From a virus, in the IMG/VR virus record IMGVR_UViG_3300006752_006525, positions 1 to 64,000 of that record: a stretch of 64,000 nucleotides of DNA. One strand, written 5' to 3'. The notes beneath the pieces were generated by a model. It saw only the letters and a list, made by a program, of their open reading frames with translations. It was not told the origin of the DNA and did not search any database. Shown piece by piece: positions 45,954-47,211 of the stretch (position 1 is its first letter; the number at the start of each line of letters is the position of its first letter). The position numbers were made by a program, and so were the translations under genes.

Positions 45954-45983
45954 AAAAAGGGCAGTTTAACTGCCCTTTTTTTT
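45954..45983. terminator. Bidirectional rho-independent terminator
   Basis: AAAAAGGGCAG-TTTAA-CTGCCCTTTTTTTT between convergent genes. Confidence 0.9.
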
Positions 45984-45986
45984 GAC

Positions 45987-46136
45987 TTAAGGATAGAAAG
46001 GATTATCTGTGATATACTTAGGCCACTCTGTTCTTTTCTCCACAGTGGGGAAACTCAAAGTTGACACTCTTTTTACTTTCTTAAGTTGTTTTTGTACAGC
46101 ACGTCGAACGAGTACTGTCTCTTGATACTTAGTCAT
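45987..46136 (-). CDS. Riboswitch-controlled basic 49-aa peptide (MTKYQETVLVRRAVQKQLKKVKRVSTLSFPTVEKRTEWPKYITDNPFYP)
   Basis: AGGAGA RBS 5 nt before ATG; ends at the terminator; absent from the ORF track. Confidence 0.75.
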   Translation of the reverse strand: MTKYQETVLVRRAVQKQLKKVKRVSTLSFPTVEKRTEWPKYITDNPFYP

Positions 46137-46157
46137 GTCATTCTCCTATCGGAAAAT

Positions 46158-46206
46158 GCGTTCCTTCGGCTTCATTGCCTACTTCCGTCCTTTACAGGAT
46201 GAACGT
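46158..46206 (-). ncRNA. Glutamine-I (glnA-motif) riboswitch aptamer 2
   Basis: ACGUUCA-[UCCU GUAA AGGA]-CGGAAGUA-[GGC AAUGAA GCC]-GAAGGAACGC. Confidence 0.85.
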
Positions 46207-46212
46207 AACAAT

Positions 46213-46262
46213 GCGTTCCTTCGTCACTATTGACTACTTCCGCCCAATGATTGGGTGAACGT
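46213..46262 (-). ncRNA. Glutamine-I (glnA-motif) riboswitch aptamer 1
   Basis: ACGUUCA-[CCCAA UCA UUGGG]-CGGAAGUA-[GUCA AUAG UGAC]-GAAGGAACGC. Confidence 0.85.
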
Positions 46263-46268
46263 ATAAAA

Positions 46269-46276
46269 TATTTATC
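46269..46276 (-). promoter_or_regulatory. Late promoter GATAAATA directly upstream of the riboswitch
   Basis: Motif 6 nt before aptamer 1. Confidence 0.7.
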
Positions 46277-46280
46277 ACTT

Positions 46281-46607
46281 TTAGGATTCTAATTGTACGA
46301 TTTTAATGGCTTCTTCTGTGCTATATGGACTTGATTCTGCCATTGGAGGCTTAGTTTCGTAGATGTTTTCATACTTTTCTACCATGTCAGCATTGATTTG
46401 TATGAATGGCTTTTCTGCTTCTGGCACATCAATCTCATCAAATATTGCATCAACAGGACATTCTGGTACACACAATCCACAATCAATACATTCATCTGGA
46501 TCTATGACCAACATATTTGGTCCTTCATAAAAACAATCAACAGGACATACTTGAACGCAATGTGTGTCCTTACAGCCGACACAAGCACTAGTTACTACAA
46601 ATGCCAT
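46281..46607 (-). CDS. fdxA: 7Fe/8Fe ferredoxin (FdxA-type)
   Basis: [42 protein letters not shown]. Confidence 0.92.
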
Positions 46608-46608
46608 T

Positions 46609-47211
46609 TTACCCCTTTTGAAATTTTGGTTTTAAGTCTATATGATACGTGCAAGAAAATACCAGTGTTCTTTTATCTGATAAGTTTGGTGTCATGCCCC
46701 ATGGAATATGACTTGGCCAAAACATTACCTTTGCTGGCTTACCTCTTTTAACAACATTGGATGGTGTCACTATAGGTGGCGTAGCCCAACGTTTGTCTCC
46801 AAAGTGTTCAAAGTAAACACTTGAACTTTTATCTGCACTCTCATCTACATCGAGGAACACTAATGCTGAATACCATCTAAGTCTTTCAGCATTGAGTGGA
46901 AAATTATGTTTAGGATTAATTGATATAAATTTACTATTAGCACAGGTTATATCTATTTGTGCTTGATTCAACTTATAGTAATCAAAAACTTGCTGGTGAA
47001 AAACGTTGCCAAGTATCTGTACTAGTTTCCTAGTCTTGTCAACTGTGTTGTTTTCTCCTGTGATAAATCCAAAGTTAGTTTCAATTCGAGGAAGTTTTGT
47101 ATCTACCTCAGTAATAATATCAGATATCATATTGCTATCTAATTCTAGTTGTCCATCAAAAACCAAGTCTGGAAACATAGGAGTAATATTCCACCCTAGC
47201 GATTTCCTCAT
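46609..47211 (-). CDS. 2OG-Fe(II) oxygenase-fold protein, metal ligands apparently degenerate
   Basis: [19 protein letters not shown] pattern; GTAAATA 5 nt before ATG. Confidence 0.45.

Follow-up and report, generated by a model that had tools for sequence, protein, structure and literature searches.

Tandem glutamine-I aptamers and a 49-residue basic protein form a predicted glutamine-ON cassette in T4-like ocean phages and marine Gammaproteobacteria

Organization of the cassette

The window analysed here is a stretch of 64 000 nucleotides (64 kb) from the 97-kb IMG/VR phage record IMGVR_UViG_3300006752_006525. Its minus strand carries, from position 46276 to 45954, a compact unit composed of a late promoter box, two aptamers, a Shine–Dalgarno (SD) platform, an open reading frame (ORF) of 49 codons and a terminator. 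The promoter box GATAAATA (46276..46269, minus strand) is of the T4 late type and lies 5 nt ahead of the match to aptamer 1. Aptamers 1 (46263..46210) and 2 (46207..46155), both on the minus strand, match the glutamine-I family RF01739 over the full model (positions 1–53) with 54.5 and 61.8 bits, respectively. The expression platform is an SD-sequestering hairpin of 8 bp (46158..46139, minus strand): the 5′ arm CAUUUUCC (46158..46151) and the 3′ arm GGAGAAUG (46146..46139) enclose the loop GAUA, and the 3′ arm holds the SD sequence AGGAGA (46147..46142, minus strand), whose GGAG is six nucleotides from the AUG. The gene (46136..45987, minus strand, stop codon included) begins with the ATG at 46136 and encodes a basic protein of 49 residues, MTKYQ...DNPFYP. 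A terminator scan identified an intrinsic hairpin at 45954..45980 (strand given as '.'), which ends both the cassette and a convergent gene for a fibre-like protein of 1209 aa.

The box GATAAATA occurs 10 times in the 64-kb window, against 3.6 expected. Among related viral cassettes, the motif [TG]ATAAATA is found 7–25 nt before aptamer 1 in all 24 distinct upstream regions, and most of the 23 cassettes printed have, as judged by eye, a GC-rich hairpin and a T run within about 50 nt 3′ of the stop codon. T4-type late transcription units are marked by a TATAAATA-type promoter ahead of the gene and an intrinsic terminator behind it. On the basis of this promoter box and of the terminator-like hairpin at its end, the viral cassette can be regarded as a self-contained late transcript.

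In many of the related loci (L003, L005, L009, L011, L014, L018, L023 and L025–L034), the 22–25 nt that separate the box from aptamer 1, where the transcript is predicted to start, contain a small hairpin, GUAAC-NNNN(N)-GUUAC. It is absent from the window and from L010, where the conserved GUUCA that opens aptamer 1 follows 8 nt after the box.

The phage polymerase is of the T4 type and is about 42 per cent identical to those of T4-like jumbo myophages of 350–490 kb; CheckV estimates the 97-kb record to be about 27 per cent complete. IMG/VR labels this record 'provirus'. It contains the T4-type polymerase and late promoters (GATAAATA, 10 copies), and a fragment of a lytic jumbo phage seems more likely than an integrated element. 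No glutamine synthetase (GS) gene was found in the record, which is about 27 per cent complete.

Upstream of the cassette lie a 2×[4Fe–4S] ferredoxin gene (46281–46607) and a gene for a 200-aa 2OG-Fe(II)-oxygenase-like protein (46609–47211, minus strand; phrog_81, E = 6e-6), which is single-copy in the phage record. An oxygenase-like gene of this type also adjoins the cassette at L003, L005, L030 and L032–L035, in two different arrangements. The oxygenase-like protein of the window is not similar to the hydroxylase encoded beside the cassette of phage Mosig (E = 0.29). The idea that the peptide is a substrate of its oxygenase-like neighbour found no support and was dropped.

Positions 46120–46282 are matched at about 99 per cent by contigs from four marine metatranscriptome studies, which diverge on both sides and come from relatives of the phage. 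The matching part runs from the promoter through the two aptamers to the fifth codon, and the continuation still reads MTKYQE.... Such contigs cannot prove transcription, and the parts of the stretch that they leave uncovered mean nothing. Between some relatives, the leader is better conserved than the coding part.

The glutamine-I aptamers and their linkage to the gene

Both RF01739 scores are far above the gathering score of the Rfam covariance model (35). Aligned to the model, the two aptamers have all the core positions of the three-helix junction, including the conserved cores CGGAAGUAG and GAAGGAACGC. Helices P2 and P3 differ between the two copies yet stay paired. The C directly 3′ of P1, which is the linchpin partner, is at 46158 in aptamer 2 and at 46213 in aptamer 1. 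Judged by these sequence features, the aptamers belong to the glutamine-I riboswitch class, with L-glutamine as the predicted ligand.

The association of the aptamers with the gene is strict. They lie directly upstream of it in all 32 assessable viral loci (28 tandem, 4 single), and tandem RF01739 aptamers precede it in all seven assessable bacterial loci; one further viral locus, L016, has only 45 nt of upstream DNA and was left out of the count. Homologues unlinked to the riboswitch, which the original prediction had named as a possible refutation, were not found at these loci. BLASTN searches of phage records with the aptamers were too insensitive to be useful.

The Rfam matches of the two aptamers are separated by a linker of only 2 nt, which leaves aptamer 1 without a platform of its own. 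From P1 to P1 the spacing is 8 nt in the window and 6–9 nt in the relatives (by eye). In L004, L005, L009, L018 and L023, aptamer 1 is followed by a tail, GCAUCUU, whose anti-SD sequence is identical to that of the aptamer 2 tail; this is a hint that capture of two anti-SDs would be needed.

Tandem glutamine riboswitches are known, with 157 doublets and 4 triplets recorded (Sherlock and Breaker 2022, PMC9481103). As in those, two complete aptamers stand in a row here, and a steeper response is expected. The known tandems are classed as pseudo-cooperative, with several expression platforms (PMC9481103), whereas here only aptamer 2 has one.

Expression platform and direction of the switch

Folded by itself, the hairpin between the tail of aptamer 2 and the SD region has an energy of −9.7 kcal/mol. 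The minimum free energy (MFE) structure of the full leader retains it and gives a pairing probability of about 1 to five of the six bases of AGGAGA, those of GGAG among them. The same hairpin is present in 16 of the 16 distinct platforms compared. The RNAalifold consensus of these 16 recovers the helix, with changes on both sides in three of its six pairs. With the helix as specified here, 97.9 per cent of the alignment cells are paired, against 28–67 per cent when the partner is slid by 1–3 columns. Of 500 shuffles, only 5 reached three doubly changed pairs. As the number of sequences is small and they are related to one another, this covariation is moderate rather than overwhelming evidence. 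Most relatives have the version CAUCUUU...GGAGAUG; L017 has CAAUCUU...GAGAUUG and phage Melnitz CACUU...GAGUG. The compensatory changes thus include paired insertions (window and L017) and the CACU/AGUG version of Melnitz.

A different anti-SD had originally been proposed, namely the 5′ strand of aptamer 2, GUUCAUCCUGU (46204..46194, minus strand), which pairs with AUAGGAGAAU (46149..46140). This pairing exists in the window, with 10 pairs, one bulge and a duplex energy of −12.2 kcal/mol, about 4 standard deviations beyond that of shuffled 5′ strands (−5.0 ± 1.8). What the relatives conserve, however, is another anti-SD, the 3′ tail of aptamer 2, CAUUUUCC, whose hairpin is found in all 16 platforms with compensatory changes. 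It is improbable that the 5′ strand is the main anti-SD, in a mutually exclusive P1/anti-SD switch to which the local hairpin would be incidental. Such a pairing competes directly with P1, the usual riboswitch logic, and it also exceeds the shuffles in the L010/L014/L025 group (about −9). However, it is no better than shuffles in L003, L012, L017 and L021–L023, it requires a loop of about 50 nt, and the fold in which it is forced (−34.1 kcal/mol) lies 6.7 kcal/mol above the MFE (−40.8); the local hairpin, for its part, is universal and covaries. We therefore read the tail hairpin as the conserved repressor and the 5′ strand, which may be a redundant anti-SD, as a second, local one in the window.

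The first base of the 5′ arm of the hairpin is the C that directly follows P1 of aptamer 2 (46158). In the solved aptamer structure, the corresponding C60 forms a ligand-dependent 'linchpin' pair with the junction G23 at the base of P1 (PMC11477058). Klähn et al. (2018, PMC6212724) showed experimentally that gifB is switched on by glutamine, mapped the same C in its leader and postulated that glutamine binding melts the pairing of this C with the ribosome-binding site (RBS); how type-1 glutamine riboswitches act is still only a postulate (PMC6212724). The arrangement of gifB is found again here: the linchpin C and the bases that follow it pair with the RBS in the window, in all 16 platforms and in the bacterial copies.

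A switch that works by the tail hairpin would proceed as follows. The late promoter would transcribe a leader with two glutamine-I aptamers. In the absence of glutamine, the 3′ tail of aptamer 2, from the C after P1, would pair with the SD region and block initiation; in the window, the 5′ strand of aptamer 2 could block the SD likewise. Binding of glutamine would fix P1, and the junction G would take the linchpin C, so that the hairpin would be undermined and the ribosome could load. Both anti-SDs would then be tied up, the 5′ strand in P1/P2 and the tail via the linchpin.

In nearest-neighbour folding, the SD hairpin persists when both P1 helices are formed. Opening of the hairpin would therefore depend on tertiary effects beyond computation, and we infer the ON direction from analogy and physiology, as secondary-structure energy alone leaves the hairpin closed. 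By analogy with gifB, glutamine-ON control through the tail hairpin is nevertheless quite probable, and the glutamine-ON translational switch that had been predicted for this gene is its best reading.

The opposite view, that glutamine turns the gene off, or that the aptamers have lost their regulatory function and the peptide is made constitutively late in infection, is considerably less credible. It can appeal to the secondary-structure model, in which the SD hairpin coexists with both folded aptamers, and to the glutamine-II class, for which a structure study reportedly suggested sequestration of the RBS on binding. Against it, the only type-1 example tested is an ON switch (PMC6212724), and the first base of the hairpin is the C that the ligand captures (PMC11477058). 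Moreover, a probable gltB gene has the same platform (see below), and across diverged relatives both aptamers keep all their core positions at high score, which argues for function.

A family of small basic proteins with an invariant C-terminus

The protein of the window has 11 lysine or arginine and four acidic residues and a pI of 10.2. Every element of the original description, a basic 49-aa ORF with 11 K/R and an AGGAGA SD, is present at the locus. The ORF had been called unannotated, which is right as regards function, since none is assigned, but not as regards gene prediction, the exact protein having already been predicted by gene callers (P0001).

A word-index search found 13 close homologues of 48–62 aa, and IMG/VR contains 33 viral loci of the family. 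A profile built from 32 members, run against 1.84 billion representative proteins, recovered 31 clusters of relatives, with family-like matches of 38–69 aa only. Three longer matches (273–1246 aa) are partial or multi-stretch, and the two inspected are repetitive. The proteins have an N-terminal part MT(K)YQ...(K/R)RAV(K)xxL(K) and end in the invariant motif (L/W)PxYITDNPFYP, which distant members relax to LPxY(I/V)xxNP(F/W/Y)Y; the linker between the two parts varies. Over the last 12 codons, compared in 21 distinct nucleotide versions, there are 2, 2 and 11 variable columns at codon positions 1, 2 and 3; in the YITDNPFYP block the numbers are 0, 0 and 8. Together with the 13 homologues, 33 viral loci and 31 clusters, this third-position-only variation in YITDNPFYP means that the ORF, as had been predicted, is real and not a chance frame. 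We consider it practically certain that both the cassette and the protein are genuine.

AlphaFold2, with the family alignment, predicts a helix at residues 3–25 (block-mean pLDDT 91–94 over residues 1–20) and a flexible remainder, with a mean pLDDT of 76. We propose that the product is a trans-acting basic protein of 49 aa with an N-terminal helix and that its invariant C-terminal motif is docking-like.

No relatives of known function were recovered. The 13 proteins of alignment A1 (including P0011) have no Pfam match at E values up to 10; Pfam, PHROGs, a PDB profile search and the ESM Atlas gave no usable match for the peptide, and the PDB profile search related the family to no solved structure. 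Neither Pfam nor the profile search of 1.84 billion proteins revealed homology to DUF4278 (PF14105)/IF17 or to the gifB and gifA products. Tblastn with two family members against 50 697 phage records yielded no isolate phage with the family, and no description of the peptide family or of its bacterial copies was found in the literature. The family thus appears to be undescribed; the switch class is known. Some members contain a YRG motif, which we considered as a sign of DUF4278 ancestry and rejected: comparisons by hhalign with the cyanophage YRG peptides (probability 0.8%), with Mosig_00116 and with the Melnitz ORF are not significant, so the motif is no evidence of such an ancestry.

Copies in bacterial chromosomes

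Among 185 579 species genomes, a single match to the peptide was found, in a 1.3-Mb metagenome-assembled genome (MAG) labelled 'uncultured Gammaproteobacteria'. Within the order of this MAG, which comprises small marine Gammaproteobacteria, the family profile located the peptide in eight of 266 genomes; one of these copies is on a single contig of 1.6 Mb. This order is probably SAR86, an assignment resting partly on its TonB receptors and on the report of RF01739 in SAR86 MAGs (PMC12379486).

All seven assessable bacterial loci have, after the tandem aptamers, the same GCAUCUUUUUAACAGGAGAUGU hairpin, and all seven lack the late-promoter box. The chromosomal context is of housekeeping type, and the neighbouring genes encode a 5′-nucleotidase, a Zn-dehydrogenase, a CDP-alcohol phosphatidyltransferase, IlvC, an acetolactate-synthase-like protein (ilvB) and TonB-dependent receptors. 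The gene after the cassette is convergent, and there are no phage genes around.

The riboswitch is far more widespread in this order than the peptide. RF01739 exceeds the threshold in 64 of 151 sampled genomes (0.7–1.8 Mb), often in tandem and with up to six copies each; the corresponding loci are L062–L091 (order of G001/G212). To our knowledge, the published view is that the glutamine-I class is exclusive to cyanobacteria, with which these 64 gammaproteobacterial genomes do not fit. Since only eight of 266 genomes have the peptide, it is not a core part of the nitrogen control of the order.

In three of the loci that were read, the gene after the riboswitch begins with a class-II amidotransferase domain of the GltB type (PF00310), and its leader shares the tail:SD platform, GCAUCU...AGGAUG. 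By its domain content this gene is probably gltB, and its presence under the same platform fits the ON logic, glutamine being the expected substrate of that enzyme. Other genes found under RF01739 in the order are a circularly permuted ATP-grasp gene and an ORF of 201 aa of unknown function (L084). Some of the leaders have a different platform, GCGACCGUUAAACCC....

Five carriers of the peptide were searched for genes of nitrogen control. PII was found in all five (two genes each), GlnD in four, a Gln-synt_C match in all five and a full-length GS-I of about 465 aa in three. GlnE was found in none of the five, including the 1.6-Mb contig. The usual enzyme that switches GS off is thus missing in these carriers, as it is in cyanobacteria. 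Absence of GlnE is common in bacteria. Cyanobacteria are without the adenylylation route, and their GS is switched off by small basic inhibitors made under a glutamine riboswitch.

Relation to the gifB system and possible role of the protein

In earlier descriptions, glutamine riboswitches are a device of cyanobacteria for the control of the GS-inactivating factor IF17, and the organisms of the 'marine metagenome' copies were left open. The present copies place a doubled switch before an unrelated mini-protein, and they occur in a jumbo phage, in many other ocean phages of the T4-like kind and on the chromosomes of abundant, streamlined heterotrophs in which no GlnE was found.

The cassette resembles the leader of gifB (IF17) in Synechocystis (PMC6212724) in the RF01739 aptamer, the small basic protein encoded downstream, the expected ON response and the anti-RBS that starts at the linchpin C after P1. 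It differs in having two aptamers 2 nt apart on one platform and a T4-type late promoter, gifB being controlled by NtcA. Its protein lacks DUF4278 and could not be related to IF17 or IF7, and the cassette is carried by a phage and by heterotrophic Gammaproteobacteria instead of cyanobacteria. The likeness to the IF17/IF7 proteins (PF14105) is therefore one of kind only (49 aa, pI 10.2, tandem RF01739 upstream) and does not extend to sequence membership. We classify the cassette as a 'glutamine switch plus mini-protein' design of the gifB type, with an unrelated protein, in heterotrophs and their phages. The Downstream-peptide/glutamine-II riboswitch of Prochlorococcus and Synechococcus is comparable, as a glutamine-sensing RNA placed before a tiny basic protein made in nitrogen excess; aptamer class, protein family (IF17-like DUF4278 there) and organisms are all different.

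We lean towards the explanation that a T4-like jumbo phage carries a stand-alone, monocistronic nitrogen-status cassette, switched on by glutamine, whose 49-aa protein would feed back on host nitrogen assimilation when glutamine is high. Whether the protein acts on host nitrogen metabolism is, taken by itself, an even call; circumstantial support comes from the bacterial copies, whose five genomes examined have PII, a Gln-synt_C match and, in four cases, GlnD, but no GlnE. We infer its target with greater reserve: GS is a possible but doubtful candidate, for which the peptide would be a non-homologous functional analogue of IF7/IF17. The case for a GS inhibitor is circumstantial, being based on carriers that have no GlnE, like the cyanobacteria that use small inhibitors under the same riboswitch. 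A complex prediction with the peptide (alignment A2) and two copies of Escherichia coli GS as a stand-in, made without controls, gave a score of 0.00 and no verdict in either direction. Somewhat more doubtful still is the full hypothesis that the MTKYQ...YITDNPFYP proteins are new, non-homologous, glutamine-induced GS inhibitors, native to GlnE-less marine heterotrophs of the SAR86 type and convergent with cyanobacterial IF7/IF17, and that T4-like ocean phages captured the cassette entire, sensor and effector together, and placed it under a late promoter. If it holds, infected cells with ample glutamine would no longer use up ATP and glutamate in the GS reaction.

If the protein does act on nitrogen assimilation, the pathway would have a second small-protein regulator of independent evolutionary origin, and the phage would carry a complete metabolite sensor and effector, not just an enzyme. 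A synthetic peptide of 49 residues would then be a testable handle on nitrogen control in uncultured ocean bacteria.

The peptide could instead serve the phage itself, as an assembly or virion factor, as a nitrogen-costly DNA- or RNA-binding peptide made when nitrogen is ample, or as a lysis-timing effector of the kind that had been suggested for this gene. We consider this unlikely. It would agree with the richness of the peptide in lysine and arginine, with the late promoter of all 24 distinct viral upstream regions and with the position of the phage cassette among late structural genes, 3′ of a gene of the major-head-protein cluster (c4; its representative matched phrog_138) in nine loci and 3′ of a fibre-like structural gene in about a dozen; lysis control was also speculated on by the authors of the Melnitz study (PMC9004378). 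The head-gene context comes from two lineages, one Melnitz/pelagimyophage-like and one of PA5oct/Phosso-like jumbo phages (one capsid gene checked in each). However, the position of the cassette varies between phage lineages like that of a moron, and the same protein and leader are chromosomal in bacteria, with neither phage genes around them nor a late promoter. As the cassette is native to cells, the original role of its protein was probably not confined to the virion or to lysis.

It is very improbable that the ORF is a cis-acting leader or ribosome-arrest peptide whose translation controls the terminator beside it and the genes beyond: conservation is indeed strongest in the last 12 residues, ending in P-stop, and the terminator stems start about 7–15 nt after the stop codon (by eye), within reach of a terminating ribosome, but the N-terminal helix is also conserved and confidently predicted, and the next gene is convergent in the window and in the bacterial loci, so that there is nothing downstream to control and the peptide is the end product.

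Other phage riboswitches followed by small genes

Glutamine riboswitches have been reported in the marine myophages Melnitz (host OM43) and Mosig (host SAR11) (PMC9004378). In both, a single RF01739 aptamer is followed by an ORF of about 30–50 codons, as it is in the cyanophage S-CREM1, and Melnitz has the same tail:SD hairpin design as the cassette of the window. Homology of the encoded proteins with the present family is not demonstrable: the hhalign probabilities are 1.4% for Mosig, 7.5% for Melnitz and 0.8% for the cyanophage.

The Melnitz paper assigns the riboswitch to the tmRNA gene (PMC9004378). In our analysis, the aptamer lies 3′ of the tmRNA, whose Rfam match ends at position 791 of L040, and 5′ of an ORF beginning with MTLYQQ. 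Aptamer, CACUU...GAGUG SD hairpin and this unannotated ORF of 32 codons occupy positions 799–968 of L040 (MZ577097.1, 46398–46567); the only ORF annotated at the site is on the minus strand. This suggests that phage annotations such as 'riboswitch-controlled tmRNA' overlook the small ORF, which is likely the regulated gene.

In Mosig (L041, 726–951; MT647606.1), the single aptamer precedes an annotated basic protein of 51 aa, Mosig_00116, ending in ...NLFTDDPRMQGI. It is of similar build to the present family, with a basic N-terminal helix and TD(D/N)P near the C-terminus, although hhalign gives the 1.4% cited above.

Glutamine-I aptamers are also known in T4-like cyanophages such as S-CREM1. 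The record of this Synechococcus phage (L043, 901–1172) annotates a 'glnA' riboswitch, which is not called at the Rfam gathering threshold. The 48-aa protein that follows it, MSQATYRGAKYDT..., has no Pfam match and no relation to the present peptide family. It has at least 24 close relatives of 48–68 aa, and the four longest contigs encoding them are of 166–213 kb.
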